Shown here piece by piece: positions 30,482 through 51,281 of a DNA stretch of 64,000 nucleotides. Location of the stretch: assembly GCA_965216315.1 (NCBI GenBank), contig CBDCFN010000016.1, positions 64,001 through 128,000 of the forward strand, written 5' to 3'. The stretch comes from a bacterium (lineage in GTDB: Bacteria > UBA10199 > 2-02-FULL-50-16 > JAJFLM01). The translations under genes and the position numbers were made by a program. Below the pieces are notes generated by a model. It had not been told where the DNA came from. It saw only the letters and a program-made list of their open reading frames with translations, and searched no databases. Position 1 is the stretch's first letter, and each line of letters begins with the position of its first letter.

Positions 30482-30549
30482 TCGGCGCCGATAGGATCTT
30501 GTTGCAGACTAAGTCTTTGAGCGAATTATTTTTGTTCACGAGAGTGAAC
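30482..30549 (-). promoter_or_regulatory. Composite element: palindrome + CAAC-N16-CGATAA promoter
   Basis: GTTCAC-GAGA-GTGAAC (30534-30549), 29-bp gap, CAAC (30504-30501), N16, CGA (30484-30482). Confidence 0.7.
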
Positions 30550-30599
30550 GAGCTGTTTGCTAGCGACGCAGAGAATCAAAGACGACCGGTTTTAAAGGG

Positions 30600-31415
30600 T
30601 TAGAGCCCCATAATCACATCCACTTCATAACCAACCAGAACATTAAGCTGTGCATCTGTCACACCATCTGCTCGGATCCGATCAATTCGTGACGCTGAAA
30701 AACTAATGACATAATAAATGGACTCTAGAATCTCCGCACCGTCCGACGAATCTTTAAGAGCACACTCAATAGTCGACCGTGTCCAAGGTCGCAGCAAATA
30801 ACACCTGAGTAAGTCGGGTAGGGCTTGACTCGCATTGCGATCGCACAAAGTGAAAATCGCGGGAACGACCATTAAGTCGTCCGGATCCCCGAGCAACGTG
30901 CGATTAAGATCTGTTACCGTTTTATCATCGCATTCGAGAAGTCTTTCATGAGCCATGTGGCGAAGCAGCTGCTCTTGCCGGTAATCTAATGCAATATCCA
31001 GTAGCTGTTGCTTAGAACAAGCGTCGAGTTGGTGTGTCAGAATAATCTGCGGATCTGCGTCATTAAGTATCACTCCAGTCATAATTCTTTCAATTAACTT
31101 TTGGTCATCTGGATGTAGCACTACTGGTGACTCGAAATCGATGAACTCATCGACTGATGATGCCATAGCGCTTTCAATTTGATCAGTTAGCAAGGCTAAA
31201 CTCTGCCGTTCCGTCCGAAACGGTGTGGCGGTCAAAGCATAGTTTGAGGGTAAGCAGAGCCGCTGAAATTCGTCATGACTCGCGCTCAGTTGTTCAATAT
31301 TCGACACTGCTGGTTGTGCGTTAATCGTCGCGCTGGTAGCACTACCGGTATTAATTAAGGCCGCGCCGCTCGCGACGGAACAGAGCTGCGCGGATGTTAG
31401 TAAAACGTTATACAT
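30600..31415 (-). CDS. Hypothetical protein with HEAT-like repeats and an uncharged S/T/A-rich N-terminus
   Basis: SD GAGGAGG; segment LLGDPDDLMVVPAIFTLCDRNASQALPDLL resembles a HEAT/PBS repeat. Confidence 0.7.
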   Translation of the reverse strand: MYNVLLTSAQLCSVASGAALINTGSATSATINAQPAVSNIEQLSASHDEFQRLCLPSNYALTATPFRTERQSLALLTDQIESAMASSVDEFIDFESPVVLHPDDQKLIERIMTGVILNDADPQIILTHQLDACSKQQLLDIALDYRQEQLLRHMAHERLLECDDKTVTDLNRTLLGDPDDLMVVPAIFTLCDRNASQALPDLLRCYLLRPWTRSTIECALKDSSDGAEILESIYYVISFSASRIDRIRADGVTDAQLNVLVGYEVDVIMGL

Positions 31416-31455
31416 GGTCGTTCCTCCTCAAATGCCCCACACACGTTAGCGCTTA

Positions 31456-31596
31456 TCGGATGAGCCAATTGAATGTTGAGCGGAATGGCCTTGCAGTCAT
31501 TATTTCCGTTCACGGGAGTGGACGTGTGATCCACTCGAGTGTGCGAATAAATAATTGTATAGCAAAAGTTGCACAACAATAGCTACGGAACGCCGA
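31456..31596. promoter_or_regulatory. Divergent pair of composite palindrome + CAAC-N16-CGA promoters
   Basis: Minus: GTTCAC-GGGA-GTGGAC 31508-31523, gap 29, CAAC 31478-31475, CGATAA. Plus: ATCCAC-TCGA-GTGTGC 31529-31544, gap 29, CAAC 31574-31577, CGA 31594-31596. Confidence 0.72.
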
Positions 31597-31625
31597 CCGC
31601 TTAAAGCGATAGGAGGATCTTATTT

Positions 31626-32966
31626 ATGTACGTTGCCTCAGCAATAGCACTTGATTCATCAGGCCTGATAGCCGCGTCGACTTTTTCAACGGCTCAGATT
31701 AGTTCTGCTCATGTAACAGGAGACGCATCCATGATTGAGCCACCTGCAACGTCCTTGCCCGTTGCCGGGTGGCGCTCTTTTGGTCTACGTTCGGCTTCGA
31801 TTGTCCCCAAGTTATTATTGCCTTTGTCTTTGTTGGCGACGGGTTGTGAGCCGAGGAGTGCGCATACAACTCCTAAAACACCCTCTGTTGTGACAATTTC
31901 CTCCGAGGAAGAAATTCAGGCGGGGCCTCTCAATGATGACCTCCGTCTTGATGAGAGCGATCCGGAGAATCCGCTGCTGATCATTGAGGATTGGCATCTG
32001 TCTCGGTTACAACGGATATTTGTTGGTAGGCTCGGAGTAAAACATGATGTGGCCCAACGTTGGCTTGATGCGCGGCAGATTCCCTTGAGAGAATTGCACG
32101 CCGAGGCGGCCGTGGGAGAGGTGCTCAAGCTGGACGCGCTTCATGCCTTGGCGCGCCTTTATTTGAAATCACCGGCCGTGCTGGGGAACTTTAGCGAGTT
32201 GTATCCATCCGTCGTCGAAAGATTTCTCATTCTTATGCAGGATATCGCAGAGCTGCGGAAGCGTCCTACGATAGACGGTTTGTACGTGAGTCAGGGACGT
32301 CTCTTTGGTAGCCCGCGGTTTAGTGGCGGTTGGCGTTTGTCTCCGTCGGCTTCGGCCCGGATATTTCATGCGCAGTATTATTGGTATGTTCCTGGCGATG
32401 TCGGTTTGACTTCTGAACAACTCATCGCCGAGCTTAATGACCCTGTCGCTTTTTATGAGTCCCTTCCGCAGATGAAAGGGAGTTATGAACTCATCAAACT
32501 GCCAAACGCTGAACCGGGTCGAAAATATTATGAAATGACAGCCGGTCTTGCCGGAAGCCTCGAGTTAAAAACCCTGCTAAATGTGTCCGAGCCGGCGCTT
32601 TTTCTGGGAGGTGGTGTTTTTTTGTCTGATTGGAAGATGGAGGCGATGGATGCCGTGTTACTGCAAATAGCTCTGAACGATATCAGAAGAATCGTGATAC
32701 CTATAAAGAATGGCGGGCATGTTATAAGCGATGTTCGTCGGTCGGCTGTTGTGCCGGAACTACAAAAAGAGTTCAACGATACAGGTGTCCAACTGGTAGC
32801 CTTAGATTATTTGAATGAGGCGGTTTCAGTGTCGGTGCAGGCTGCCCAGCGCAAAGCGGGACAGGTGCCTGTTGAGCTGCGATTCACGTCAGGGTCCATT
32901 TGGAAGACCGGTCGCATGAATCAATGTTTTCCACCAAGAAAGTGTGACGCGCAAATTGCCGAGTAA
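31626..32966 (+). CDS. Hypothetical protein with S/A-rich leader and internal lipobox-like segment
   Basis: SD AGGAGG, 446-aa ORF; KLLLPLSLLATGC at about aa 61-73. Confidence 0.75.
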   Translation: MYVASAIALDSSGLIAASTFSTAQISSAHVTGDASMIEPPATSLPVAGWRSFGLRSASIVPKLLLPLSLLATGCEPRSAHTTPKTPSVVTISSEEEIQAGPLNDDLRLDESDPENPLLIIEDWHLSRLQRIFVGRLGVKHDVAQRWLDARQIPLRELHAEAAVGEVLKLDALHALARLYLKSPAVLGNFSELYPSVVERFLILMQDIAELRKRPTIDGLYVSQGRLFGSPRFSGGWRLSPSASARIFHAQYYWYVPGDVGLTSEQLIAELNDPVAFYESLPQMKGSYELIKLPNAEPGRKYYEMTAGLAGSLELKTLLNVSEPALFLGGGVFLSDWKMEAMDAVLLQIALNDIRRIVIPIKNGGHVISDVRRSAVVPELQKEFNDTGVQLVALDYLNEAVSVSVQAAQRKAGQVPVELRFTSGSIWKTGRMNQCFPPRKCDAQIAE

Positions 32967-33073
32967 CGTATGAGTCACATAAATATAATTTTGCTTCGGT
33001 GTGTATCATTAATAGTTTCGTCATTCGGCACGGCATTACAAAAACTTTGTCAACCCCAGTCAATGAAAGGGAG

Positions 33074-33718
33074 TTATTTGGGTGTCCGAATCATTTCAAA
33101 TACACCTGGCTTGATCCGAGCATTTGAACTGCGACCTGATGGCGTCACGGGTCCTTTGATGGGATTATTGAGCTGATATGTTTGTGGCTCATCATCTTCA
33201 CTGTCCGATGACTTTGGCGTATCGACCGTAAAGGCATCGGGCTCCGGCGCGGGAAATTCCATGACCGGCTCTTCGGCGTAGGCGACCGTTTCTTCATTTT
33301 CATTCTCCGCCCAGTTGATGACGATTGTGCCGAGATCTATGTCGCCGTGGCCCGCCGGGACGGAGAAGGTAGCGCTAAATTCCACTTCGTTAAGGGGGAA
33401 AAAGACGGTGATGGTTTGGTCAGCGACGACGAGTTGGAGGCCGTAATTGTCGCCGACGTGGACCAGACCTTTGAAAGTACAGTCGGATGAGAGCTGCAGG
33501 GAAAAGGCGTTTTCTATCGGTGCACTGATGGCAACGACTTCGTCGACTTCACAGCTGCCATCAAGGAGGATGCGTCCTGCGACACTACGGAATTGGTGTG
33601 GATTGGTCGCTTCAGTGCCGCCCTGAAAATTCCATTCCGCAGGACCGCCGGCTTGGCAGGCCACGAGGCCCCAGATCAATAATAAACTCGCGACGCGGAT
33701 GAGGCGGATTTTCTTCAT
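33074..33718 (-). CDS. Lipoprotein, partner of the TIGR02147 protein
   Basis: MKKIRLIRVASLLLIWGLVAC lipobox; overlaps the upstream stop (ATGA); paralogous to 41943-42650. Confidence 0.8.
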   Translation of the reverse strand: MKKIRLIRVASLLLIWGLVACQAGGPAEWNFQGGTEATNPHQFRSVAGRILLDGSCEVDEVVAISAPIENAFSLQLSSDCTFKGLVHVGDNYGLQLVVADQTITVFFPLNEVEFSATFSVPAGHGDIDLGTIVINWAENENEETVAYAEEPVMEFPAPEPDAFTVDTPKSSDSEDDEPQTYQLNNPIKGPVTPSGRSSNARIKPGVFEMIRTPK

Positions 33719-34599
33719 GTGCGTTTTTCCTTATTTTCGGTTGCCGTGACCGGTAGGAGCTGCAGGGAGAGGAGTACGACTTCTTCGGGTTCCGTTACGC
33801 TTGAGACCAATTTAAGAATCTCGCCACGAAACTCTTCAATTTTCTTTTTTAGGATCGGAATATCGGAACACTTGATTCCTAAGGTAAGGGCGCTGATATC
33901 GCGTTGATCGGGTTTGACCTCGGCCATGCGATTCCTCATGAGCTCGAGTATGCTGTGATAGTAATTGAAAAGCGGAATGTGTGAGGCATCTTGTCCTGAA
34001 GTGACAAGCGGAGAAGACTGTTCCCATTTGACGGACTCTTTGTCGGAGGTTCGTTTAATAAACTCCATGCGTTCGAGTAGTTCGAGGGATTCCGCGACTT
34101 GACCGGAAGAGATGGCAGGCTTGATGCGCCGGGCGATCCATTCATGGGTACCGTCATATTCCGGGGAGATCGCAAGTTCGCGGACGACCGGATGATACCA
34201 AGTTGAATAGTAGTCGTATTGATACCTGGCGACGGGTTGGAGCCGGTGATATTCTTGCGAACAGACGAGTTTCCGATAAAAGCTATTTTTTTCGTCATGG
34301 GATGTGGCCTGATTAAAAAAGACAAGATTGGTGAAATATTCCGCTTCCGGACGACCGAGAGTGAGGCCGCGGATGAATTTTTTTATACTGGACTCCGTGA
34401 GATTGCGGTCCCCGTCCATGACGAATTTATACACGCTGGGGGAACGTAGTCCGGCCTTGCGGGAGAAGAAGCGATAGGAGAAGTTATATGCTTGTTTGGC
34501 CTGCTCCAGCCAGTCGCGCAGAAATTGGCGATAATCGAGATAGTCAAAGATACTGACTTCCTGCTTAGGTTTCGATTGTGTCTCTTCAAGTACGAACAT
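33715..34599 (-). CDS. TIGR02147 family (DUF4423) HTH-containing protein
   Basis: IFDYLDYRQFLRDW, FSYRFFSRKAGLRSPS, YYSTWYHPVVREL, RDISALTLGI. Confidence 0.9.
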   Translation of the reverse strand: MFVLEETQSKPKQEVSIFDYLDYRQFLRDWLEQAKQAYNFSYRFFSRKAGLRSPSVYKFVMDGDRNLTESSIKKFIRGLTLGRPEAEYFTNLVFFNQATSHDEKNSFYRKLVCSQEYHRLQPVARYQYDYYSTWYHPVVRELAISPEYDGTHEWIARRIKPAISSGQVAESLELLERMEFIKRTSDKESVKWEQSSPLVTSGQDASHIPLFNYYHSILELMRNRMAEVKPDQRDISALTLGIKCSDIPILKKKIEEFRGEILKLVSSVTEPEEVVLLSLQLLPVTATENKEKRT

Positions 34600-34621
34600 G
34601 CCGTTTCCTTAGCTGTATTTA

Positions 34622-34765
34622 TCGACGACGTACTGCGATCGTTGCGTTCGGGTCCACTGCAAGTCGTGACAAAACGTCCACGCGAGTGGACAAGCTAATT
34701 GTAATTATCGGCTGATAACGGGAGACGTTGTGGCAAAGGCGGCGTTTCTGTTTACGTGAGTCAAC
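34622..34765 (-). promoter_or_regulatory. Two tandem composite palindrome + CAAC-N16-CGATAA promoters
   Basis: GTCCAC-GCGA-GTGGAC 34676-34691, gap 31 to CAAC 34644-34641; GTTTAC-GTGA-GTCAAC 34750-34765, gap 19 to CAAC 34730-34727; both followed by N16-CGATAA. Confidence 0.75.
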
Positions 34766-34822
34766 AGTTGTTATTGGCATAAATTAACTGGCAGGGGCGA
34801 AGTGATTCTTTGCCTTATTAAT

Positions 34823-35968
34823 TTAGTTGGTTTTAGTGAGTAGCGCAGGCAATTCTTTTAGGCATATCGACAACGGGATAACATCGATTTTTCCTTCACT
34901 CATGCGTCGGGACCCTCCATAGACGAGATAGGCCTTGGCTTGAGGATAGTCGCGCAAGAAAGATCTCAGACCGGAAAAATCCTTTTTTTGAATTTTGGCG
35001 GTGCGCTTGATTTCAATCGCGACGAGGCCTTGTTTGCCATACAGGATGAAGTCGACTTCTGCTCCATTGGCGGTGCGCCAGTAGAAGAGTTCGTAACCCG
35101 GATTATAATAGTCGTTAATGGCCCTGAGCTCCTGAAACAAGAGTGTTTCAAAGGAGACCCCTTCGATTTCTTCAGGCCTGTCCAGCGGCCCCGCTGGGCG
35201 TATGGTCCTGAAGACCCCCACATCAAAGAAATAGAATTTTGGATGGGTGACCGTGCGTCGTTTGGCTCGTTTGGTGAAGACGGGGAGTCGGACACCGATT
35301 AAGAGGTCTTCCAGAATAGTAAAGTAACTTTCTACGACTTTTCGCTCAGTGGCGCATTCACGCGCGACTTCTGAAATATTGAGTACAGAGCCTTGAGAAA
35401 AACTTGCGGCCTCCATAAACCGTGCAAAGGTTCCGAGGTTGCGAGTGAGCCCTTCTGCCTGGACTTCTTCTTTGAGATAAGTCTTAACATAACTCTCAAG
35501 ATATTTTTTGGGGTCGGGTTCGCTTGGAATGGCCGGTAAGTGTCCAAACTGGAGCGAGCGCTCTAAATTAAAGTCACGGCCGAGTTCATTTGTTGTAAGT
35601 GGATACAGATTATAGGTGAGGGCGCGTCCTGCCAGTAGATTGACGCCTTTGCGGCGTAATTTTCGGGCACTGGATCCCGTTAGGATAAAGTGATGCCGTT
35701 TTTTTTCGATGAGACGATGCACTTCATCTAGTAGTGTTGGGACTTTCTGGATTTCATCGATAATGATCCAGTCATCAAAACCTTGAGGGATAAAGTTTTC
35801 GAGTCTTTGCGGGTGAGCTAAGAGATCAGTGTATATATCGGCTTCCAATAGGTCCAGGTAGAGCGCATCAGGATATTGCTTTTGAACCCAAGTTGATTTT
35901 CCGGTTCCGCGCGGGCCAAAAAGAAAGAAACTTTTTTTTTCGGGGGGCTTGAGTAATCTGGAGTACAT
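34823..35968 (-). CDS. AAA+ ATPase with DUF4143 (AAA_14 family)
   Basis: GPRGTGKS, IIIDEIQK, LTGSSA, NLLAGRA, KFYFFDVG, EVDFI..AIEIK. Confidence 0.92.
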   Translation of the reverse strand: MYSRLLKPPEKKSFFLFGPRGTGKSTWVQKQYPDALYLDLLEADIYTDLLAHPQRLENFIPQGFDDWIIIDEIQKVPTLLDEVHRLIEKKRHHFILTGSSARKLRRKGVNLLAGRALTYNLYPLTTNELGRDFNLERSLQFGHLPAIPSEPDPKKYLESYVKTYLKEEVQAEGLTRNLGTFARFMEAASFSQGSVLNISEVARECATERKVVESYFTILEDLLIGVRLPVFTKRAKRRTVTHPKFYFFDVGVFRTIRPAGPLDRPEEIEGVSFETLLFQELRAINDYYNPGYELFYWRTANGAEVDFILYGKQGLVAIEIKRTAKIQKKDFSGLRSFLRDYPQAKAYLVYGGSRRMSEGKIDVIPLSICLKELPALLTKTN

Positions 35969-35986
35969 AACTCCATAATGCATATA

Positions 35987-36011
35987 AATATGGAATTATC
36001 AATTCCATATT
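35987..36011. repeat. Perfect inverted repeat upstream of the AAA/DUF4143 gene
   Basis: AATATGGAATT-ATC-AATTCCATATT. Confidence 0.7.
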
Positions 36012-36056
36012 GCATATTATTTATATTGAGAGAAGATGTATAAATATCTAATAATA

Positions 36057-37316: not shown

Positions 37317-37326
37317 AACAGCATTT

Positions 37327-37437
37327 TCGCGATGAGAGGGGAATCGTTGCGGGAGAGTTGACCTCGCATCACATAAAGCGTCCACATCCGTGGATGATAA
37401 TTTTCTTCCACGACAACTAAGTCTTGGTCCTCAGCGA
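37327..37437. promoter_or_regulatory. Shared palindrome with divergent CAAC-N16/17-CGA promoters
   Basis: GTCCAC-ATCC-GTGGAT 37380-37395; minus CAAC 37349-37346 (gap 30) N16 CGAAAA; plus CAAC 37414-37417 (gap 18) N17 CGAGAA. Confidence 0.6.
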
Positions 37438-37480
37438 GAATGGAGTGAAATAAGTGCGCACCATTTGAAGGAGGAATAGG

Positions 37481-40785: not shown

Positions 40786-41057
40786 TCGAAGCAGAAAGCG
40801 ATGAGTTGTGGCTTTTTTGTTTAGGGGTCGTGTGAGGCCTCGGCCCCAATGAAACGGAGCAGGCTGCGCGCGACGCCCGTATTTTTGACCGCAATAAGTA
40901 CCTGTTGTTATGGAAAACTGATGAAAGTGATTATCTGTTAACACGAGTCAACAGATAAGATCTTCGTTCACAGCTGTGAACAGATATTCCCGATTAAATG
41001 CAACTACCAGTTGTCTTAAACTGACATCGACGCGCAACTCTCATGACAATAGTCCGA
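40786..41057. promoter_or_regulatory. Divergent control region with two palindromes and four CAAC promoter-like sites
   Basis: Palindromes GTTAAC-ACGA-GTCAAC 40937-40952 and GTTCAC-AGCT-GTGAAC 40966-40981; consensus promoters minus 40808-40786 and plus 41035-41057; palindrome-linked CAAC at 40907 (gap 29) and 41001 (gap 19) with imperfect -10. Confidence 0.7.
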
Positions 41058-41077: not shown

Positions 41078-41926
41078 ATGATTATGCCGACTAAACAAAC
41101 ACAGCTATCGATTATTAATTATTTAGACTACCGACAGTTTTTATGCGATTGGTATGCGGCAGCTAAGAAGCAATATGGTTTTTCCTATCGGGTATTCTCG
41201 AGGAGAGCGGGCTTTAATTCACCCGCCGTGTTTAAGCAGGTGGCCGAGGGTGACCGGGGCCTGACGGAAAAGAGCTTGCCTAAATTTGCCAAGGGACTTG
41301 GTCTTAATGCTGAGGATAAGAAGTACTTTTATCTGCTGGTAAAATTTAATCAGGCCAAAAGCCACGAGAAGAAAAACACCTATTATCAAAAACTTATCCG
41401 TACGCGACAGTATCGGGAACTCAAACCGGTTGCTGAGGATCAGTACGAATACTATTCGACTTGGTATCATGCGGTTGTCCGCGAGCTTGTCGTTACCAAG
41501 GAATTTGACGGCAACCCGGAATGGGTCGCAAAGCGAGTGACGCCGCGGCTGACGATCGAACAGGTTCAACATTCGATAAATCTATTGGAGAGGCTTGGCT
41601 TTATCGCGAGGAATGAAAGTGAGGCCGGACCACTATGGTTGCAGGCGAGTCCGGTAGTCAGCTCCGGTGCCGAAGTGGCGTCGATTCCCCTGTTTAATTA
41701 TCATCGTTCCGTCTTGGATCTGGTTAAAAATCAGATGACGACAGTGGCTTGGCAAAACCGGGATGTGAGTACGTTAACCATCGGGATGGTCAAGGAACGT
41801 TTGCCTGAACTGAAGAAGAAAATCCAAGAATTCAGGCGCGAGATTATTCAAATGGTCTCTTCCGATCGCGATACGGAAGAGGTCTTTGTCCTGTCCATGC
41901 AGCTTTTACCCGTCACCGAAATGTAG
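41078..41926 (+). CDS. TIGR02147 family (DUF4423) HTH-containing protein
   Basis: IINYLDYRQFLCDW, FSYRVFSRRAGFNSP, YYSTWYHAVVREL, RDVSTLTIG; paralog of 33715-34599. Confidence 0.9.
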   Translation: MIMPTKQTQLSIINYLDYRQFLCDWYAAAKKQYGFSYRVFSRRAGFNSPAVFKQVAEGDRGLTEKSLPKFAKGLGLNAEDKKYFYLLVKFNQAKSHEKKNTYYQKLIRTRQYRELKPVAEDQYEYYSTWYHAVVRELVVTKEFDGNPEWVAKRVTPRLTIEQVQHSINLLERLGFIARNESEAGPLWLQASPVVSSGAEVASIPLFNYHRSVLDLVKNQMTTVAWQNRDVSTLTIGMVKERLPELKKKIQEFRREIIQMVSSDRDTEEVFVLSMQLLPVTEM

Positions 41927-41942
41927 CGCAAAGGAAATGATT

Positions 41943-42650
41943 ATGATGAAACAAAAGAGTTGGCTTTTAGTGATTCTATTGACTGCATGTTTGGGTACAG
42001 CCTGTCAGCAAGGTACGGCTAACCTGCAGGGACCGTCTTGGCAGGACGAAGCCCAGGAAGGCCTGCTTCCGGAGGGGGGCGAAGATTTGCAGGAGGGGGT
42101 CAGTGAAGCCGGCAATCCGCAACAATTAAGACCGGTGATAGGCGTAGTCATCAACGAGGATCCTGATGTCGTAGCTTGTGGCGCCGATATCGTTATCGCG
42201 ACGACTAAAAAAGGCGAATCGGTTGAGTTTGCGGTAGGGGCCGACTGTGATTTTTTCAAAGAACTTGGAGTCGGGGAAGAATATAGCCTAGCCTTGATCA
42301 AAGACGAGCAAGCCTTGCCGGAAGTCATGTTCAAGGATATGGAGTCGGGCGAGCTCAGTAAGTATTTCTTGCTCCCAAGCGGTGAGGGGCCTTTTGATCT
42401 GGGGATCATCGTTGTTGCTCTTGAGATAATGCCGATTGAAATTTATCCGAACTATGTTGAATCATCTGAGAATGCAGAGGCATCGACTCATGAAACAGTG
42501 GCGGATAGTGAGCAGCTATTCTCAGATAAGTATAGGATTGATCTTCCGGGACCTGATTTAGAGAAACCGACGTCGGCAGATAAGGCCCCTCCGCAGGCAC
42601 CATCGTTGCCGCCCATTAAGATCATGCGCCACCTACATCATAGCTTCTAG
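41943..42650 (+). CDS. Lipoprotein, partner of the TIGR02147 protein
   Basis: MMKQKSWLLVILLTACLGTAC lipobox; paralog of 33074-33718. Confidence 0.8.
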   Translation: MMKQKSWLLVILLTACLGTACQQGTANLQGPSWQDEAQEGLLPEGGEDLQEGVSEAGNPQQLRPVIGVVINEDPDVVACGADIVIATTKKGESVEFAVGADCDFFKELGVGEEYSLALIKDEQALPEVMFKDMESGELSKYFLLPSGEGPFDLGIIVVALEIMPIEIYPNYVESSENAEASTHETVADSEQLFSDKYRIDLPGPDLEKPTSADKAPPQAPSLPPIKIMRHLHHSF

Positions 42651-42664: not shown

Positions 42665-42723
42665 GTTCACACCCGCGAACAGATAATGACGTCATTCAAC
42701 AACATTCGTTTTCACATTGTCGA
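42665..42723 (+). promoter_or_regulatory. Composite palindrome + CAAC-N17-CGATTA promoter
   Basis: GTTCAC-ACCC-GCGAAC 42665-42680, gap 19, CAAC 42700-42703, CGA 42721-42723. Confidence 0.6.
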
Positions 42724-42802
42724 TTACATAGTAATCGTAATATTTGCGGCAGATCTGAATGTGCTCATGACAACATTTATATGGCGGAGGTTTTTTTTGA
42801 AG

Positions 42803-44161: not shown

Positions 44162-44194
44162 TAAAGTAGTTACATCTAGGGTATTGTTCCAGCT

Positions 44195-45109
44195 ATGAAG
44201 TTCTATCGCACTCCGGATTCTTGCTTTACCGACCTCAAGGACTATCCATTCACTCCCCATTACACGGACGTTCATTCGTTGCGCATGCACTATGTTGACG
44301 AAGGTCCCGAGGCGGCCGATCCGGTTCTCATGCTGCATGGCGAGCCGTCATGGTCTTATCTCTATCGTCATATGATACCCGTGTGTGCCGCTGCGGGTCA
44401 CCGCGTGATCGCGCCCGATCTTATCGGATTCGGCAGGTCGGACAAACCACGAAGACTTGGTGATTATAGCTATAAGAATCACGTCGACTGGATTGCCGGC
44501 TTTATTCAATCGCTTGACCTCAATAACATCACTTTGGTTTGCCAGGACTGGGGATCGCTGATCGGTTTGCGTGTTGCCGCTGAGAATGAAGCCCGCTTCG
44601 CCCGTATTGTCGTCGGTAACGGTGCGCTGCCTACGGGAAAGGGGCGCAATCGCCTGCCACTAGCCTTTACTTTATGGAAAACCTTCGCTCGCTGGAGTCC
44701 TTGGTTCCCGATCGATCGCATCATGATGATTGGAACCTCGAGATCCCTCGATGCTGACGAGCGGCGTGCCTACCGTGCGCCCTTTCCTGCAACTAAATAT
44801 AAAGTGGCAACACGCGCCTTCCCGAGACTCGTACCGGTGTCAACAAAAGATCCCGCCCATCGGGCTAATGAAGCCGCTTGGGAGAGGCTGTGCCGATGGA
44901 ACAAACCTTTTTTGACGGCGTTCAGCGATGGAGATCCGATTTTTAAGGGAAAGGATAAATACTTGCAGCGTCACATCCCCGGAGCCCGTAGTCAGAAGCA
45001 TGTCACTTTAAAAGGAGGGCACTTCTTGCAGGAAGATTCGGGAGTCGAGTTTGCAAACGTCATTAATGATTTCATCGCTGCCACCTCCATGAACTCAAGC
45101 AATGCCTGA
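44195..45109 (+). CDS. Haloalkane dehalogenase (HLD-I / DhmA-like)
   Basis: RTPD, LHGEPSWSYLYR, PDLIGFGRSDKP, nucleophile QDWG, catalytic His in GGHFLQED. Confidence 0.93.
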   Translation: MKFYRTPDSCFTDLKDYPFTPHYTDVHSLRMHYVDEGPEAADPVLMLHGEPSWSYLYRHMIPVCAAAGHRVIAPDLIGFGRSDKPRRLGDYSYKNHVDWIAGFIQSLDLNNITLVCQDWGSLIGLRVAAENEARFARIVVGNGALPTGKGRNRLPLAFTLWKTFARWSPWFPIDRIMMIGTSRSLDADERRAYRAPFPATKYKVATRAFPRLVPVSTKDPAHRANEAAWERLCRWNKPFLTAFSDGDPIFKGKDKYLQRHIPGARSQKHVTLKGGHFLQEDSGVEFANVINDFIAATSMNSSNA

Positions 45110-45142
45110 TGCCTGATGCTTGAATGCAGCATTCGGTCTGTC

Positions 45143-45201
45143 GTTCACGGCTGAGAACAGATAATGCTTTCTTAGCACAACATGCTCTTTACCTGTGACG
45201 A
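45143..45201 (+). promoter_or_regulatory. Composite palindrome + CAAC-N17-CGACAA promoter
   Basis: GTTCAC-GGCT-GAGAAC 45143-45158, gap 19, CAAC 45178-45181, CGA 45199-45201. Confidence 0.6.
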
Positions 45202-45209
45202 CAAGTTTA

Positions 45210-45322
45210 TAGTTTGATGATGGTGTTCCTAGCACTACTAGTTCGACGGAAACGCTTGCGCGCCCGTTCGAACTAACCATACCGCATCCGGGACGGGGCT
45301 CCGTTAGCCCCGTCCCGTTATT
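45210..45322 (+). ncRNA. Candidate small RNA (or mRNA for the 19-aa peptide at 45217-45276)
   Basis: Lies between the composite promoter and a strong hairpin; contains stem TAGTTCGACGG...CCGTTCGAACTA; ends are estimated. Confidence 0.4.
45289..45317 (+). terminator. GC-rich hairpin, likely intrinsic (possibly bidirectional) terminator
   Basis: CGGGACGGGGCT-CCGTT-AGCCCCGTCCCG (12-bp perfect stem) followed by TTATT, between convergent units. Confidence 0.7.
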
Positions 45323-45348
45323 AATGAACTATTGTCTTGGTACCGACA

Positions 45349-46467
45349 TCAAGACCAGGTGAATTTTTGGAGTGCCGCTTCGAAACGATCGCGTCGGGGA
45401 TGGCTAGCGAGATCTTGTTTGAGCTGTTTCTGAAAGAGCAGCAGTAATTCTTTGATTGCTTTATCGCGCTCTGGGTTGGTCGTTTTGAGATAGATTGGGA
45501 GGCTGGCGATAAAACCGTCGTAGGCGTTGTCGCGCGCGAGGCGGATCCCGCTCAAGAATGAGTCCAGGGCGTAATCGACATCGAGCTGCTGTTGTAAATC
45601 GGGAGGAGCGTCGTGATAACAGCGCTCGAACGCGTCGTACATAAAGAGTGCATCCGCGCGTTCCTCCTCACTGAAGAGGCCCCAACGATAGGCATGGTCG
45701 ATATCGTGATAGGCGGCCTGGAGCGGATGCGCATAACTCTGATGGAAGCGTTGGGGGCTGCAGGCTAGAAGCAGGCAGCGGCGGGCCGGTGTGTCCTCGA
45801 GCATGTCGCGCAAATCAGGCAAGGTGCTGATGCGGGCCGTCAGTTGGAGTTCGAGCGGTGACGCGATGTTGAGGGTTTGCAAGAGCCCGACGAGTAGGGC
45901 GAGGGGCGGCAGGCGGTGGATGCGCGTGCCCTCCGGAAAGAAGAATTCCTGGAGTCCTGCACCGGCGGGATGGCCGACCCCTAAGTTTCTTAAGTTGTTG
46001 GTCGCCGCGGCTTTGGCAGCACTCAAATACAAGACGCGTTGACTTTGTTTGTGGCGAACGGTGACAAAATCGCCGGGTTCATTCGCGAGCACCAGTTCAT
46101 GCATTTCCAAGGCGCCGCCGGCCGGGAAATCGGTTAGCCATCGTTCTACGACGGGCGGACGCTCGGAGATCGCGTCGAGCGGGACCGTGCGGATCTCGTC
46201 GAGAAAATTATGGGGCTGACCCGCTTTGTCTTCGTAGCCCTGCTGTAATTCAGTCGCGAGTGAAGTGCGGAGACTGTTCATCAGAGTGTCAGCCGCCTGA
46301 AATACCGTTACCCGCTGTTGCAAGGCGAGTCGTATCCTCTGTTGGCTCTGTTGTTGACCGTTACGCTGAACGACCGAATTTGCCTGGTTGAGATTGCTGA
46401 GCGTCGTCTGCAAAAAGGCGTAGTTCGCCGGCGTCAAGGCCGTCAATGTTGAGGGGAGTGAAACCAT
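45349..46467 (-). CDS. Hypothetical protein with uncharged S/T/L/N-rich N-terminus
   Basis: 372-aa ORF; contains YHDIDHAY (HxxxH-like) near the C-terminus. Confidence 0.7.
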   Translation of the reverse strand: MVSLPSTLTALTPANYAFLQTTLSNLNQANSVVQRNGQQQSQQRIRLALQQRVTVFQAADTLMNSLRTSLATELQQGYEDKAGQPHNFLDEIRTVPLDAISERPPVVERWLTDFPAGGALEMHELVLANEPGDFVTVRHKQSQRVLYLSAAKAAATNNLRNLGVGHPAGAGLQEFFFPEGTRIHRLPPLALLVGLLQTLNIASPLELQLTARISTLPDLRDMLEDTPARRCLLLACSPQRFHQSYAHPLQAAYHDIDHAYRWGLFSEEERADALFMYDAFERCYHDAPPDLQQQLDVDYALDSFLSGIRLARDNAYDGFIASLPIYLKTTNPERDKAIKELLLLFQKQLKQDLASHPRRDRFEAALQKFTWS

Positions 46468-46476
46468 GCTGTCTTG

Positions 46477-46534
46477 TCGGGGACGCTGGACGAATGTTGT
46501 CGTTTAGCTCCAGAAAGTGTTGACGCGAGTAAGC
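46477..46534 (-). promoter_or_regulatory. Composite palindrome + CAAC-N16-CGACAA promoter
   Basis: GTTGAC-GCGA-GTAAGC 46519-46534, gap 19, CAAC 46499-46496, CGA 46479-46477. Confidence 0.65.
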
Positions 46535-46600
46535 GGCGTTTCAGCTGATGGCACCGATCCTCACAGCTTTGGGAGCCGTTCACGTGAATAAGCCCTCTTG

Positions 46601-46650
46601 TTATTAACGTTAAATCAAGTTGACGTTAATAAAAATATCCCTTATTAACA
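46601..46650. repeat. Inverted repeat / probable operator upstream of the Fic gene
   Basis: TTATTAACGT-N12-ACGTTAATAA plus a third half-site TTATTAACA at 46642-46650. Confidence 0.65.
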
Positions 46651-46659
46651 TTTCAGGAC

Positions 46660-47811
46660 ATGAAACCGGATCAATTCAAAGGCAGCACGGCGGGGAATTG
46701 TATTCTAACAGACCGAGACTATTGGGCTTTTATCCCTAACCCCCTTCCGCCCCCGATCGAGATCGATTGGCGGCTGGCTGACGTCTTATCGGAGGCGGAT
46801 CGGGCCTTGAGTGAACTGTCCGGAGTGGGCCGCTTGCTACCGAATCCCTACCTGTTGATTAATCCCTACGTCCGGAAGGAGGCGGTCTTGAGCTCCCGGA
46901 TCGAGGGGACGCAGGCGAGCTTAAGCGATCTCTTTTATTTCGAAGCGGAGGAGCCGGAGTCCCCGTCGGTTCCCGATGTCCGCGAAGTCCATAATTACGT
47001 CTTGGCTATGAACCACGGCCTCGAGCGCCTCAAGACACTACCGATCAGCAACCGCCTCGTACGAGAGATCCATGCCGTCTTGATGGAAGGGGTCCGAGGC
47101 GGAGCGGCCACGCCGGGAGAATTTCGGCGTTCCCAAAACTGGATCGGACCTCCCGGCTGTACCTTAAAGGAGGCCACGTTTGTGCCGCCCCCGCCGACTG
47201 AAATGAATCAGGCTTTAACGGAGTGGGAAAAGTTTTTACATGCACCCACCGAACTGCCCCCGCTGATTGTGTGCGCGCTCATGCACTATCAGTTCGAGGC
47301 GATCCATCCCTTTCTGGATGGCAATGGGCGGGTGGGGCGGCTGCTGATCACCTTCTTCTTGTGCGAGCGTAATCATCTTTCGGAGCCGTTGCTCTATCTG
47401 TCGGATTATTTTGAAAGGACTCGATCCGATTACTATCGTCATTTACTTGAGGTCAGTCAGTCGGGCACATGGCGCGCCTGGCTGGAGTATTTTCTAAAAG
47501 GCGTTGCGCTTCAGGCCAAGGATGCCTGTGAAACCGCGACCCGCCTGATGGACCTACATCAGAAGTATCGTACTCAGGTGGGAACAAAACGCGTTCCTGC
47601 GGCGGCCTATCAGCTGGTCGATCAAATTTTTATTACCCCCGTTCTTTCTATCGCGAAGCTCGCTCGTGAATGGAAGATGTCTTATCCCAAGGTGACCCGT
47701 GGCATAGAACGACTTGTCAAAATAGGAATACTCAAAGAAGTGACGGGACAACGTCGCAACCGTCTCTTTGCGGCCGATCAACTGATCCGACTTTTGACCC
47801 GTGAAAAATAA
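46660..47811 (+). CDS. Fic family protein (Fic_N/DUF4172 + Fic + wHTH)
   Basis: HPFLDGNGRVGR active-site motif; inhibitory motif SSRIEG. Confidence 0.95.
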   Translation: MKPDQFKGSTAGNCILTDRDYWAFIPNPLPPPIEIDWRLADVLSEADRALSELSGVGRLLPNPYLLINPYVRKEAVLSSRIEGTQASLSDLFYFEAEEPESPSVPDVREVHNYVLAMNHGLERLKTLPISNRLVREIHAVLMEGVRGGAATPGEFRRSQNWIGPPGCTLKEATFVPPPPTEMNQALTEWEKFLHAPTELPPLIVCALMHYQFEAIHPFLDGNGRVGRLLITFFLCERNHLSEPLLYLSDYFERTRSDYYRHLLEVSQSGTWRAWLEYFLKGVALQAKDACETATRLMDLHQKYRTQVGTKRVPAAAYQLVDQIFITPVLSIAKLAREWKMSYPKVTRGIERLVKIGILKEVTGQRRNRLFAADQLIRLLTREK

Positions 47812-47814
47812 GGT

Positions 47815-47872
47815 GTTCACAACTGTAAACACTTTTCGCGCCGTTTTCACAACTTATGCTGATACATTTCGA
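47815..47872 (+). promoter_or_regulatory. Composite palindrome + CAAC-N16-CGAAAA promoter
   Basis: GTTCAC-AACT-GTAAAC 47815-47830, gap 19, CAAC 47850-47853, CGA 47870-47872. Confidence 0.7.
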
Positions 47873-47953
47873 AAAGCCGTAAGGATTCGGAGATGGATCC
47901 GAGTTGTGCCGTGACGATTTTCGCATCATTTGGTGAAGAAAAGAGTCGGAACC

Positions 47954-48991
47954 ATGTCATTTATCGCCAGCATCCCGATATCGGGGTATCTAAACAGCTT
48001 TCAGGTATTGCCGGATGCCGGGCAGATGGTCGTTCCGATCGTCTACGGTAGCCTCGGGCGTCCGTCGGCGGTCACCGTTAAAGCGGAGGTACTGACCTCG
48101 GAAAATGTCGATCGCTTCGCGGAGGCGGCTAGAGCATTGTTGCAAGGTCGAAAATCTCCGGGGCCGGTGCTATCAGAGGGTTGGGACATCCAGCGGGATC
48201 CTCTCGATGATCTCCTGGGTCGCAAGCGTATTCACGTCATCGAGCAGGTTGTGGGCTCGGGACCTTGGAAAGAGATTCAACTCACGGAGTCTGGTTCGAC
48301 CGATGAGGTTGGGCTTGTCGTGAATGTCAGCCAGCACCGAAACTCTCGTTCGGTTACGATGGGCATGGATATAGGCCGGGCCCGTAGACCTGCTTCTCTT
48401 GATGACTGGATTCTCACCAACGACTTTGCGATGCGATTGGAGGGACTTGCCGTTCGCGGGCTTAAGGAGTACGTCGGCCTATTGCCGGAGCACCGCGTGG
48501 ATCTCGTCTGTCATGTCTTCTTCAAGAGCCTGGGGTTGATGCTCGATGAGGAGGAATTCGAGGATGACTCACTTCCCCCACGCTTGAGAGAACTATTTGA
48601 AACGATGAAGCAGGTGAAACCTTCGCGGGAAAGAATGTATGAGCAGGCCGTGGAGATATTCGGTGAGGAAGAAGCGAAAAAGATCATGAATCGAGAGCCG
48701 AGGCAGGGGACGTCACGGGATGTCTACGTCCAATCGCATATCAGAGATCTCGGGCCGGGTGAGACATGCTCCTTTGACTATCGTGTCGAGAAAGAAAGTC
48801 TCGGTTTTACGGAGGAAGTCGCGATTTATTTTTTTTCATCAAGTCATCACTTTCCCTGGCCGCTCCCCACGTCGGTCCGCCCGATGTGGGACTGGTTGCT
48901 CTCGGATCGCTCCGAACCGGACGAAAATATGCGTCAAAAATATTATGAAATGACAGAGCGGACCTACGGCCATCTAAAACTCCGTAGTTGA
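47954..48991 (+). CDS. Hypothetical protein
   Basis: 345-aa ORF starting [10 protein letters not shown]; no motif recognised. Confidence 0.7.
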
Positions 48992-49022
48992 ACCTTCGCA
49001 TTCATACCGCTATCTTGAGTGT

Positions 49023-50180
49023 ATGGATGCCCCGATTTATCTGGACAACCACGCGACCACGCCCGTGGACCCCAAGGTCCTCGAGGCGATGCTGCCGTAC
49101 TTTCAAGAGCGGTTCGGCAATGCGGCGAGCAAACAGCATTCTTATGGCTGGGTGGCCGAAGAGGCCGTGGAGACCGCGCGCGAACAAATCGCGAAGCTGA
49201 TTGGCTGCAAGGCCAAAGAGATCGTTTTTACCAGCGGGGCGACGGAGGCCAACAACCTCGCCTTGTTCGGGGTCGCCCAGAGCTATCGTCCCCAAGGGAA
49301 GCATATTATTACGGTCGTTACCGAACACAAGGCCATCCTCGATCCGGTTGCCTATCTGGCAAAGAATGGATTCGACGTCACGTATCTTTCCGTCGATAAG
49401 CAAGGACACATCGATCTCGATCGGCTTGAAAAGGCGATTACGGATCAAACGATTTTAATCTCCGTCATGGCGGCGAACAATGAAATCGGGACCCTGCATC
49501 CTCTCGCTGAAATTGGTCAGTTCGCCAAGACGAAGGACGTTTTTTTTCACACCGACGCCGCCCAGGCGCTCGGAAAAATCCCATTAAATGTTGAAGCGAT
49601 GGGTATCGATTTAGTCAGCCTTTCCGCGCATAAGCTCTATGGGCCCAAGGGGATCGGGGCCCTTTATGTCCGGTCCCGTGATCCGCATGTGCAGTTGCTT
49701 CCTCAGATCTTGGGGGGCGGCCACGAACGCGGGTTGCGTTCCGGGACCTTAGCGGTTCCGCTCTGTGTCGGCTTTGGGGCGGCCTGTGCGCTTGCGCATC
49801 AGGTGATGCCGGAAGAGGCGCCGCGGATGAAGGGCCTCCGCGATCGTTTGCAGGACGGAATTTGCAATCAATTGGATGCCGTCCTTTTAAACGGCGATGC
49901 CGCGCGGCGCTTGCCCAACAATCTCAACCTCAGTTTTGCGGGGACGCAGGCCGAGGCCTTGATGATGAAACTTGATACGGTCGCCTGTTCCTCCGGTTCG
50001 GCGTGCACGACCGCGGACCCCAAACCGTCGCACGTGCTCCGTGCTTTAGGTCTGGGTGAAGATCTCGCGCATGCCGCCCTGCGCTTTGGCGTAGGACGCT
50101 TCAATACCGAGGCGGAGATCGACGTGGCGATCGAAAAGATCGTTGCCGCCGTCAATGAGCTCCGCGCAGGGTCTGGATAA
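49023..50180 (+). CDS. iscS: Cysteine desulfurase (IscS/NifS type)
   Basis: [39 protein letters not shown]. Confidence 0.93.
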
Positions 50181-51198
50181 AAATTTCCAGTGATTCCGTT
50201 AAGAGATCAGCGAGTTGTGCCGCTGCGGTGACTTCAGGGTCGCCGCCGTCATCGGCCGGCACAACAGCGCCGAGCCTTTGCAGCTCCGATCCGACGACAT
50301 CACCTAGGGTCATCGAATTCCGCGGCAGATCCAAGGGCAGCGGGATTTCTTCGCTCTCATCATCCAGCAGCTTGATGTCGGGGCTCGAAGGGACGATTTC
50401 GTCATCGATACTGATGCGGCTCTGCGGCGCGCCCATGGTCTCTTGAAAGAGCGTGAGAGCGAGTTCACGGAGTGGGTCAGCAACGTTGAAGGCGGCCTGC
50501 AACTTGGCTTCAAAGGGATCTATCTCATCAGAAATTTGTCCCAAGAAAACCAACGCTGATTGGAGACGCATGGTAATCGCCAGGGCGGCTTCGTATTGAC
50601 TATGGATCGCATCGACATCGGACAAGAGGTCGATCGAGAGTGACGAGAGCGAGGCGTCTAAATCCAACAGGCTCGGTAAGGTCGGTCGGAATCCCATAAT
50701 GAGTCGGGCCGCGTTGATCGTTGCCGTGTCTTGGGTACGCGCCAAATGAGGCTGTTCGAGGAGAAACTCTAATTCGCGCGCCCGCGCGGCAAAGGCGTCT
50801 TCTCCTTCCAACTCGATATCACGGAGAATCGCGAGTGCATCATCGTTGTCAGCAAGGGCCTCGACGTAACTGATTTCATGAGTGACCGAGTCGCCTTCTC
50901 GAACGATAGAAAAGAATTCGTGGATCAGATCGAGTGGCGTCTCGCCTTCGTCAACCTCAGTCTGAGGGGCTGCATTGAGTAGCTGGTTGGCACTATCAGC
51001 CAAAGAATGCTCGCCGATTTCCTCGAGGGCCGGTCCCACGCTGCGCAGATAAGGGTCGACTTCCTCAACCGACTCCGTTTGCAGGGCATCATCCAAAAAA
51101 CTCTGGACGAAAGACACATTATAGGCACTGAGATTGGTAACACTGGCCAGGGCAAGTGAACTCGTGTTCAATGATAGCGACGGAATAGCCGAAAACAT
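50152..51198 (-). CDS. Hypothetical acidic protein with uncharged Ser/Leu-rich N-terminus
   Basis: SD GAGGAG; 348-aa ORF; CAAC-N16-CGATGA upstream (51270-51245). Confidence 0.72.
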
Positions 51199-51281
51199 AA
51201 CAGACTCCTCATATTATTTGATGAATTCACAATGACGAGCCGTGTCATCGACGGGCGCGGCGATAGGTTGCGTCTTTTTTT

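Follow-up and report, generated by a model that had tools for sequence, protein, structure and literature searches.

What drives the orphan genes crowded into this locus of an uncultured bacterium, and which proteins would read the signals upstream of them? The window, that is, the whole stretch of 64,000 nt analysed here, belongs to the GTDB lineage UBA10199 (assembly GCA_965216315.1, contig CBDCFN010000016.1, positions 64,001-128,000, forward strand); G000 denotes the genome carrying it, and G001, G018, G020, G024 and G070 are related genomes compared with it. A sequence-only reading had placed a sigma-28-type alternative-sigma promoter, CAAC-N16/N17-CGA, upstream of a series of genes in the window, and all 11 sites with the 16-bp and all three with the 17-bp spacer are indeed present on the strands proposed, the one before 37481 being weak (Table 1). 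CAAC-N16-CGA has 27 matches in the whole window; the intergenic sites scoring at least 10, the window cut-off for a matrix trained on G000, are confined to 30504-51270. Judged by its sequence, CAAC-N16-CGA forms the core of a promoter resembling those of sigma-28, RCAACTTTT-N10-GCCGATAA, of which the -10 element is by matrix consensus the canonical one of sigma-28 (FliA/WhiG), with RCAACTTTT standing in place of the usual -35, TAAA/TTAAG.

Table 1. Features of the locus in window coordinates, except for the last row; promoters, operators and leaderless transcripts are predictions, and scores are those of the respective matrix.
Position	Strand	Feature	Basis
30482..30504	-	sigma-28-like promoter, leaderless fusion of helicase and sigma-70 region 4 (998 aa, 27474-30470)	16.8
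30534..30549	.	operator, 29 bp upstream of promoter 30504	19.5
31456..31478	-	promoter of orphan 30600-31415	18.1
31508..31523	.	operator, 29 bp ahead of 31478	19.5
31529..31544	.	variant operator, doubtful, 29 bp ahead of 31574	-2.5; fits by position, not by sequence
31574..31596	+	weak promoter, orphan 31626-32966	12.0
33074..33718	-	orphan gene, lipoprotein-like, overlaps end of TIGR02147 gene, lacks own promoter	N-terminus read
33715..34599	-	TIGR02147/DUF4423 regulator, GTT(N)AC-associated clade	family match, tree
34622..34644	-	proximal promoter of TIGR02147 gene	20.1
34676..34691	.	operator of GTCCAC subtype, 31 bp ahead of 34644	13.6
34708..34730	-	distal promoter of TIGR02147 gene	21.3
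34750..34765	.	operator, 19 bp ahead of 34730	26.9
37327..37349	-	promoter of leaderless orphan 36057-37316	16.5
37380..37395	.	variant operator GTCCAC-N4-GTGGAT, 30 bp from 37349, 18 bp from 37414	5.2; dyad search
37414..37437	+	weak 17-bp-spacer promoter, CSLREA / choice-of-anchor Q protein 37481-39967	9.3
40786..40808	-	promoter of leaderless orphan 39975-40772	17.3
40937..40952	.	best-scoring operator of window; CAAC 29 bp away lacks CGA	30.8
40966..40981	.	operator; the CAAC at 19 bp has no CGA; an intact promoter follows at 53 bp	24.0
41035..41057	+	promoter of second TIGR02147 gene	22.7
41084..41926	+	second TIGR02147/DUF4423 regulator, XRE HTH + winged helix + dimer domain	modelled
41946..42650	+	lipoprotein-like orphan gene following the regulator, lacks own promoter	
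42665..42680	.	operator, 19 bp ahead of 42700	23.2
42700..42723	+	17-bp-spacer promoter of beta-propeller protein 42803-44161	15.1
45143..45158	.	operator, 19 bp ahead of 45178	18.5
45178..45201	+	17-bp-spacer promoter, short transcript	13.0
45210..45325	+	candidate small RNA, about 110 nt, ends in terminator hairpin 45289-45317	
46477..46499	-	promoter of leaderless orphan 45349-46467	15.5
46519..46534	.	operator, 19 bp ahead of 46499	20.4
47815..47830	.	operator, 19 bp ahead of 47850	21.6
47850..47872	+	promoter of orphan 47954-48991	18.6
51248..51270	-	operator-less promoter of orphan 50152-51198, uncharged L-A-S leader N-terminus	20.6
G000:C16:350583-351410		FliA/WhiG-like sigma	inside non-flagellar type III secretion cluster

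The supposition that the regulon is genome-wide holds as well. At the genome-wide cut-off of at least 14, G000 has 309 intergenic hits as opposed to 3-13 across five shuffles, the proposed comparison with shuffled sequence, and CAAC-N16-CGA lies in sense orientation within 120 nt upstream of 202 of its 2456 genes (controls: antisense 54, mid-gene 26, other spacers 9-35). The promoter is enriched over a reversed control in all 31 genomes surveyed for promoter and sigma. At 89 of 323 promoters the first ATG of a long frame falls 5-10 nt after the -10 octamer, and at five it falls at 0-4 nt; given the pile-up at 6-10 nt, transcription probably starts 9-10 nt after CGA, as anticipated, and some 90 mRNAs, about a third of the units, would be leaderless. 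Two qualifications apply to the further claim of a promoter before nearly every orphan: two orphans placed behind TIGR02147 genes (33074-33718 and 41946-42650) lack one of their own, and across the genome a minority of the sites stand before ordinary genes, such as one with a UvrA motif.

Which sigma factor reads this promoter? Five factors of the sigma-70 family are encoded in G000, and the single FliA/WhiG-like one, located in the type III secretion cluster, is the likely reader. WhiG and FliA are its best relatives of solved structure, and its best family is TIGR02479, to which it scores 133 bits, below the cut-off of 189.6. Region 2.4/3.0 aligns with FliA and thus fits the canonical -10, whereas its -35 helix reads KSWTSRLH, found in 38 of 41 pattern-readable -35 helices, in place of the ESRVSQ(L/I)H of FliA and WhiG. 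The factor was detected in 31 of 31 genomes, a sample that contains no sigma-less genome for contrast; sctN lies within 6 kb of it in 25 of 26 loci with full flanks, and in 21 of 25 such loci a sense promoter is found within 4.5 kb before its gene, in most cases with an 18-bp spacer and at one of two positions that recur between loci. Of the flagellar and chemotaxis genes that are the hallmark of sigma-28 control, flagellin was searched for and not found in G000; across 73 genomes of the class, the sample also used for dyad excess, 10 have one.

AAC-N16-CG also resembles promoters of ECF sigmas, and two ECFs and an RpoH-like factor are present in G000. That one of these reads the promoter, in line with the ECF interpretation offered earlier, is nevertheless very improbable: the promoter occurs in 31 of 31 genomes and the two ECFs in only six and nine of them (E 1e-25, single-protein queries), it is conserved ahead of the operon that encodes the cluster sigma, and its full -10, GCCGATAA, is as described for Bdellovibrio FliA (PMC3627812). 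In the available part of that report, the FliA promoter of Bdellovibrio bacteriovorus is TTAAG-N16-CCGATA, and FliA accounts for 92 of 140 mapped promoters in the attack phase (Karunker et al. 2013, PMC3627812). The two systems share CCGATA, the 16-bp spacing and a large, mostly non-flagellar and largely uncharacterised gene set with small RNAs. They differ in the -35, here CAAC rather than TTAAG, in the absence of flagellin from G000, in the location of the sigma inside a type III cluster and in its region 4.2 helix; the phased activator boxes present here were not found described for Bdellovibrio FliA promoters in that part of the report.

These boxes were sought with the strict consensus GTYNAC-N4-GTNRAC and a separate intergenic matrix. 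Seven strict sites fall in the window, all within 30534-47830, and genome-wide the N4 spacer yields 32 matches as opposed to 2-10 for other spacers. Of the 50 intergenic matrix sites, 40 are followed by a promoter at 19-21 or 29-31 bp (jitter null: mean 2.8, maximum 10), and the genome-wide histogram has the two peaks expected from the window (22, 4 and 1 at 19, 20 and 21 bp; 9, 5 and 2 at 29, 30 and 31 bp). Site centres near -60 and -70 (about -59.5 and -69.5), likewise foreseen, place the boxes on a single helical face upstream of the -35. Most palindromes first listed score as operators, including 42665, 45143 and 46519 with one consensus mismatch each (matrix 18-23), but 31529 and 37380 fail both consensus and matrix, and the CAACs at phased distance from 40937 and 40966 lack the CGA (promoter scores 4.7 and 1.0). 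These two boxes near 41 kb, the best ones, are therefore not in phase with any intact promoter, that at 41035 being 82 bp from the first and 53 bp from the second. Boxes are scattered across G000, and the one at 34676 falls inside the leader of promoter 34730.

Which protein binds these boxes? Most likely, the palindrome serves as operator for a single clade of helix-turn-helix dimers in the TIGR02147/DUF4423 family. The family occurs in Bdellovibrionota, Fibrobacterota and the UBA10199 lineage; we found no description of its function in the literature searched, DUF4423 appearing only as a table mention (Bd3700). G000 has 13 paralogues, of which the two in the window score 264 and 252 bits against a cut-off of 50. 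Five form a clade with box-adjacent genes of G001 and G020 (support 0.994), and within 10 kb of them 12 of 36 boxed promoters are found, as compared with 17 of 329 others, the clade label having been picked after the box positions were known; two thirds of the boxed promoters in G000 lie more than 10 kb from any clade gene. Relatives keep the spacing and change the sequence with the neighbouring paralogue: G001 has the same box and phasing (in 11 of 12 pairs with a promoter the distance is 19-20 or 28-30), and in G018, 11 of 33 promoters near TIGR02147 genes carry at exactly 19 bp a dyad of different sequence (arms GGACAC, GTGTCC, GGGCAC, GCGCAC). Thus, a paralogue family replaces the one activator originally envisaged for the whole battery, the more so as the box is found on only 36 of 323 intergenic promoters of G000.

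An in-phase excess of at least 11 occurs in six of nine genomes with at least eight DUF4423 genes and in none of 64 with fewer. Excess and gene number correlate over the means of 24 families (rho 0.62; kin are not independent) and weakly across all 73 genomes (rank correlation 0.31; out-of-phase control 0.28). The skeleton pattern gave no in-phase excess in three of the nine rich genomes (G001, G024 and G070), three GTTGAC boxes examined in G020 have no scoring promoter at phased distance, and about 30 of 52 TIGR02147 genes examined have no phased dyad within 3 kb. The scatter of boxes across G000, and one small protein that fits a crude CRP motif, would suit a different reader (CRP/FNR-like, LexA-like or of another kind), with the TIGR02147 genes as mere targets. 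We consider this improbable, as box sequence tracks the neighbouring paralogue at constant spacing, the phased excess is restricted to genomes with an expanded TIGR02147 family, and a LexA DNA-binding domain is absent from G000 by a search positive in 10 of 14 control genomes. An SOS box was likewise rejected: this search found no LexA domain, and there is no box near recA, recN, uvrA or uvrB.

The modelled regulator (pLDDT 88.8) has an XRE-type helix-turn-helix, a winged helix and a C-terminal dimer domain; PF01381 is found on 14% of one Atlas cluster. Its fold matches are weak, with no E-value below 0.001 and Z of 7-8 common. The homodimer model scores 0.68 (best control 0.00), a mark that 20 of the 30 solved pairs and one of the 23 single chains attain; at least 90% of the contacts recur between runs, with pLDDT of at least 83. 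As in restriction-modification controller (C) proteins (C.Esp1396I, C.AhdI), in the accounts drawn on here, an XRE helix-turn-helix, dimers on palindromes and autoregulation are predicted, and Foldseek relates the two (about 80 residues, probability 0.98-0.99, E 0.26-0.4). Unlike C proteins as so described, TIGR02147 proteins have about 285 residues with two extra domains, their targets would be sigma-28-type promoters of orphan and candidate exported proteins, and no restriction-modification genes were seen beside them within the window.

Together, this suggests a two-layer control, which we regard as probable. In the first layer, the cluster sigma would read the variant promoter (-35 RCAACTTTT, -10 GCCGATAA) of about 300 units, mostly of unknown function and including its own cluster, about a third of them leaderless. 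In the second, TIGR02147/DUF4423 dimers would bind the 16-bp dyad through their N-terminal XRE-type domains, one or two helical turns ahead of the -35 at about 40 promoters with weak -35 boxes, their own included, and recruit polymerase in a class I manner. Motif, phasing, linkage and co-variation are computed results, while we infer this pairing of protein with DNA, and activation on binding because of box position and the weak -35: boxed promoters have 1.44 of 4 -35 Ts versus 2.36 in unboxed ones (p 9e-6) and a -35 block of 8.33 versus 10.46 bits (p 1e-6), with a total score not significantly lower (p 0.08). Site placement upstream of the -35 on one face and a weak -35 block are as in class I activation. 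There is a precedent in E. coli aer and trg, sigma-28 promoters activated by CRP from -49.5 in a face-of-helix-dependent manner, with no activation of sigma-28 from -61.5 (Hollands et al., PMC2859248). In both cases a dimeric factor would sit upstream of a sigma-28 promoter, -49.5 being one and two turns from -59.5 and -69.5. Unlike the two sites in the part of that study considered, there are about 40 here, and the candidate reader is not CRP, but a paralogue family with differing sequences (PMC2859248).

With the same sigma and TIGR02147 reader, the protein could instead repress or only fine-tune, by blocking upstream contacts of the alpha subunit or by targeting an overlapping sigma-70 promoter, a signal via the downstream-encoded lipoprotein perhaps releasing it. 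Repressors (Stl, DdrO, HigA) make up many of the XRE-fold matches, boxes lie on the regulators' own promoters, and one falls inside a leader. We deem repression unlikely, as strict same-face phasing at two distances with a weak -35 is the prediction of recruitment, and simple steric repression requires overlap with the promoter, which phased boxes do not have with the promoter downstream of them.

What does the promoter serve? No charged residue (D/E/K/R) occurs at residues 2-12 in 130 of 296 regulon proteins, as against 77 of 1081 others, and 58 of the 296, orphans and second copies of cytoplasmic enzymes, have an L-A-S/A motif at the N-terminus. Uncharged leaders are found on more than 100 proteins, about 65 ending in [LVI][LC]A[SA][SGAT]. 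By crude start calls, uncharged starts number 11 of 22 in G001 and, in genomes from other families, 5 of 26, 1 of 26, 5 of 41, 6 of 29 and 1 of 4. Type III substrates are described, in the available part of the source, as polar-rich and charge-poor at the N-terminus (PMC2668754), and the charge-free starts of the 130 regulon proteins agree with this; those with uncharged leaders may be type III substrates, the tag marking export. The cluster has an export apparatus and sorting platform and no secretin or recognisable needle; a search for needle families gave no match anywhere, control genomes being equally blank. In this it resembles the needleless T3SS* of Myxococcus xanthus (mxan_2434-2464; PMC12075869), compared by partial description. 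Unlike T3SS* as so described, G000 has no match to the Tad RcpC/CpaB family, its sctU lies apart from the cluster, and two SycD/LcrH-like chaperones are present (PMC12075869).

Tentatively, and with more doubt than conviction, the promoter could define the export programme of a predator or parasite of bacteria, in which a needle-less type III system exports the uncharged-leader proteins, the delivered proteins rewire the metabolism, signalling and transcription of the bacterial host, and TIGR02147 paralogues act as plug-in switches gating subsets. The proposed cargo includes a spare phosphofructokinase, malic enzyme, glutamate dehydrogenase and a fused acetyl-CoA carboxylase / biotin ligase, and further hybrid histidine kinases, a diguanylate cyclase and the helicase fused to sigma-70 region 4. 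The common leader on duplicated cytoplasmic enzymes would be a first hint of these bacteria's way of life, and the promoter supplies a candidate substrate list, analogous to the hrp and PIP boxes that mark substrates in plant-associated bacteria. TIGR02147/DUF4423 gains a testable function and a candidate binding site, its paralogue-operator pairs offering a natural recognition code for tests with purified proteins, and a sigma-28 variant with rewired -35 specificity would be tied to type III secretion rather than flagella in a whole uncultured class.

The candidate small RNA of the window occurs in single copy and has no Rfam match; its folding z is -5.9 with the terminator hairpin counted, a hairpin that the convergent gene could use too.

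How are the orphan genes of the window brought under common control? The CAAC-N16-CGA and CAAC-N17-CGA elements that the sequence-only reading had placed upstream of them are all there (14 of 14), and the intergenic promoter sites of the window all fall within 30504-51270. Across the source genome, G000 (2.96 Mb, 98% complete, with genes called by a simple hexamer model of our own that leaves some error in start sites), the CAAC-N16-CGA core lies in sense orientation no more than 120 nt upstream of 202 of the 2456 genes, compared with 54 in antisense, 26 at mid-gene positions and 9-35 with other spacers. In a check set beforehand, 309 intergenic matrix sites scored at least 14, as against 3-13 in five shuffles, so that the expected genome-wide enrichment is borne out. 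With its flanks, the consensus reads MRCAACTTTT-N10-GCCGATAA, and all 31 genomes compared show the motif enriched relative to its reversed control. Start codons offer an independent check: at 89 of 323 promoters the first ATG of a long frame lies 5-10 nt past the -10 octamer, and 5 promoters have it at 0-4 nt. This pile-up is a leaderless-mRNA pattern and places the start site some 6-7 nt past the octamer, in agreement with the predicted start 9-10 nt after CGA; about 90 of the 323 promoters in G000 would thus yield leaderless or near-leaderless mRNAs.

The sigma set of G000 comprises RpoD, an RpoH-like factor, two ECFs and one FliA/WhiG-like factor, whose gene sits between sctJ and sctL/sctN in a non-flagellar type III secretion cluster. 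A search of G000 for flagellin found none, and a flagellar regulon was rejected on that ground; an ECF as the reader is disfavoured because the two ECFs were detected in only 6 and 9 of the 31 genomes. The cluster sigma is present in 31 of 31 at 57-84% identity, in a sample that contains no sigma-less genome as a negative, and sctN lies within 6 kb of its gene in 25 of 26 loci with full flanks. It scores under its family cut-off; the region that reads the -10 element can be aligned to WhiG and FliA, but KSWTSRLH replaces the usual sequence of the -35 helix, as it does in 38 of 41 readable relatives. Such a combination fits a promoter with a canonical -10 and an altered -35. The promoter also recurs upstream of the factor's own operon: 21 of 25 loci have it there, most often with a spacer of 18 bp. 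On these grounds the cluster sigma is very probably the factor that reads it. The 18-bp spacer is that of the secretion cluster's own promoters (L089-L134), which stand about 1.1 and 3.2 kb ahead of the sigma gene: it gives 47 sense matches and the 16-bp spacer 2, a difference that may give these promoters a timing or strength of their own.

The second element is the 16-bp palindrome GTYNAC-N4-GTNRAC, extended here to TATCTGTTNAC-N4-GTNAACAGATA. Its two preferred distances, proposed from the window, hold for the genome: 40 of 50 intergenic sites precede a promoter by 19-21 or 29-31 bp, against a mean of 2.8 and a maximum of 10 in the jitter null. With the start site taken from the ATGs, the box centres fall near -59.5 and -69.5. 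A generic dyad scan of all 322 promoters gave peaks at 19 and 29-30 bp only, chiefly from the same box. Boxed promoters are a minority (36 of 323 strong promoters in G000). They have the weaker -35 blocks, with a T count of 1.44 versus 2.36 (p 9e-6), and for the total score p is 0.08. Of the twelve boxes first listed in the window, eight satisfy the matrix and stand in phase with an intact promoter; those at 31529 and 37380 keep the phase without satisfying the matrix, and those at 40937 and 40966 are strong and phased to a CAAC that lacks the CGA. Near the regulator gene at 33715-34599, boxes tend to RTYCAC-N4-GTGRAY with 29-31 bp spacing, and at 41-48 kb they stand mostly at 19 bp, often with a AACAGATA end; these differences in sequence and spacing suggest that two readers would be active on this window. 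Of six boxes on the 4.9-kb contig G000:C13, four stand in phase at 19 bp; the contig's control region at 650-686 resembles window 45143-45190, and the gene behind it begins like the window's beta-propeller.

An SOS box read by LexA was considered and excluded, since G000 has no LexA domain and the genes that we take, from short motifs, to be recA, recN, uvrA and uvrB have no boxes. Candidate readers are instead the TIGR02147/DUF4423 proteins, helix-turn-helix regulators of which two are encoded in the window (33715-34599 and 41084-41926) and 13 in G000. The predicted model of one of the two (pLDDT 88.8) pairs a winged helix with an XRE-type helix-turn-helix at the N-terminus that is similar to controller proteins, at weak E-values; a search of solved structures by sequence, using a four-protein TIGR02147 profile, gave nothing below E 0.1. 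Modelled as a homodimer joined by the C-terminal domain, it scores 0.68 against 0.00 for the best control; among solved pairs 20 of 30 attain this mark, and among single chains 1 of 23. The runs share at least 90% of contacts at a pLDDT of at least 83. Twelve of 36 boxed promoters, versus 17 of 329 others, lie within 10 kb of the five genes of one paralogue clade, which was chosen after seeing the data; the other G000 paralogues show no significant linkage to boxed promoters. In a FastTree tree of 51 of 52 proteins (one partial sequence was left out), the clade groups at support 0.994 with genes of the relatives G001 and G020 that have the same box nearby, although the G020 boxes examined have no scoring promoter in phase.

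In other relatives the dyad differs. G018 has a 16-bp dyad with different arms at exactly 19 bp in 11 of 33 promoters near TIGR02147 genes, and G001, G023 and G024 have other dyads at 19-20 or 29-30 bp beside TIGR02147 paralogues; for about 30 of 52 TIGR02147 genes there is no phased dyad within 3 kb. Over 73 genomes, kin among which are not independent, the excess of the skeleton G-N4-C-N4-G-N4-C at 19-20 bp over 24-25 bp is at least 11 in six of the nine genomes with at least eight family members and at most 5 in the other 64; the remaining three of the nine show no in-phase excess, and the rank correlation (0.31) is near that of the control (0.28). Taken together, the comparisons make it highly likely that this family reads the box. 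Behind each window TIGR02147 gene stands an orphan lipoprotein-like gene (33074-33718 and 41946-42650); for the second, Atlas matches were sub-threshold only. Further afield, one homologue was retrieved from a Bdellovibrio plasmid, and a metagenome scan gave one locus.

In the mechanism that we propose, the cluster sigma would switch on the whole regulon, and TIGR02147 dimers would recruit polymerase to the weak -35 subset from the same helical face and would act on their own genes too. That box binding activates these promoters is likely, and the two-layer model as a whole (cluster sigma, TIGR02147 reader and activation) is reasonably probable because its steps support each other. The sequence-only reading, with its one activator and one alternative sigma, is thus confirmed in observation and supported in part in interpretation. 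Among described systems, two come nearest: the attack-phase regulon that FliA drives in Bdellovibrio (PMC3627812), a bacterium with DUF4423 genes and mapped start sites, and the CRP-activated aer and trg, which have sigma-28 promoters (PMC2859248). The regulatory logic is already known; the parts are undescribed in the literature searched, which gave no paper on TIGR02147 and one table row for DUF4423, and none of the UBA10199 titles listed concerns regulation.

What does the regulon encode? Residues 2-12 are free of charge in 130 of 296 regulon proteins versus 77 of 1081 other operon-leading genes (odds ratio 10), and these N-termini are rich in Ser, Thr, Asn and Gln (in the window, 50152-51198, 30600-31415 and 31626-32966). 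The motif [LVIMA][LC]A[SATH][SGTA] at residues 11-31, which ends this leader, occurs in 58 of 296 regulon proteins versus 12 of 2060 other genes, about nine of which look like true members. Uncharged starts are also seen in 74 of 105 leaderless or near-leaderless genes of G000. With crude start calls, they occur in 11 of 22 G001 genes and elsewhere in 5/26, 1/26, 5/41, 6/29 and 1/4; of all these genes, only 2 of the 22 in G001 have the strict motif. By these counts the leader is clear only in G000's own family.

A Pfam scan covered 106 of 135 leader candidates (27 lay outside the retrieved loci and two evident false positives were removed by hand) and left 46 of the 63 motif-bearing proteins, and 29 of the 43 others with uncharged starts, without a match. 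Matches are mostly to cytoplasmic enzymes (phosphofructokinase, malic enzyme, glutamate dehydrogenase, a carboxylase/biotin ligase fusion) and bacterial signalling proteins, with kinases, hybrid histidine kinases, a diguanylate cyclase, an adenylate cyclase and helicases; ankyrin, F-box, U-box and leucine-rich-repeat families are absent from those of the 106. For phosphofructokinase, carboxylase, aminotransferase, malic enzyme and glutamate dehydrogenase there is an ordinary paralogue with a shorter N-terminus, RtcB and amidase have paralogues and no N-terminal extension, and seven of 20 queries returned none.

Leader-bearing second copies in retrieved loci (L) and further features of the window
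Feature	Location	Coordinates
Phosphofructokinase, second copy	L137	14065-15435
Malic enzyme, second copy	L144	3583-5685
Acetyl-CoA carboxylase fused to biotin ligase, 2577 aa, second copy	L162	101-7834
Glutamate dehydrogenase, second copy	L164	15181-16593
Class V aminotransferase, second copy	L141	17311-18939
Histidine kinase, then three tandem sigma-54 activators	window	3578-9006
tRNA	window	57779-57850
SAM riboswitch ahead of two PLP-enzyme genes	window	61053-61173

Type III substrates typically have polar, charge-poor N-termini (PMC2668754), and a needleless system of Myxococcus takes part in prey lysis (PMC12075869). Export of the leader proteins as type III substrates is a tentative and rather unlikely reading of their N-termini. 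A live alternative takes the leader for an atypical Sec signal cleaved after alanine; the regulon includes ordinary Sec and lipoprotein substrates too. A needle family search gave zero matches anywhere, controls included, and the RcpC family, as a Tad partner, was not found in G000. There, sctU is far from the secretion cluster, and the only clear secretin is within a type II secretion-like cluster (G000:C16:805026-806048 and 974670-975164).

The short transcript at 45.2 kb matches no Rfam family, and neither G000 nor the retrieved loci contain another copy of it. At 27474-30470, the window encodes a 998-aa ResIII/DEAD helicase, with a leaderless mRNA and an uncharged N-terminus, fused to a sigma-70 region 4 domain with 39% identity to the C-terminus of RpoD from G000. 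Elsewhere in the genome, large orphan genes follow one another at G000:C16:2159000-2201000, and every one has a promoter to itself; several of these genes encode cysteine-containing N-termini with a CxxNP-like motif, a different type of leader.
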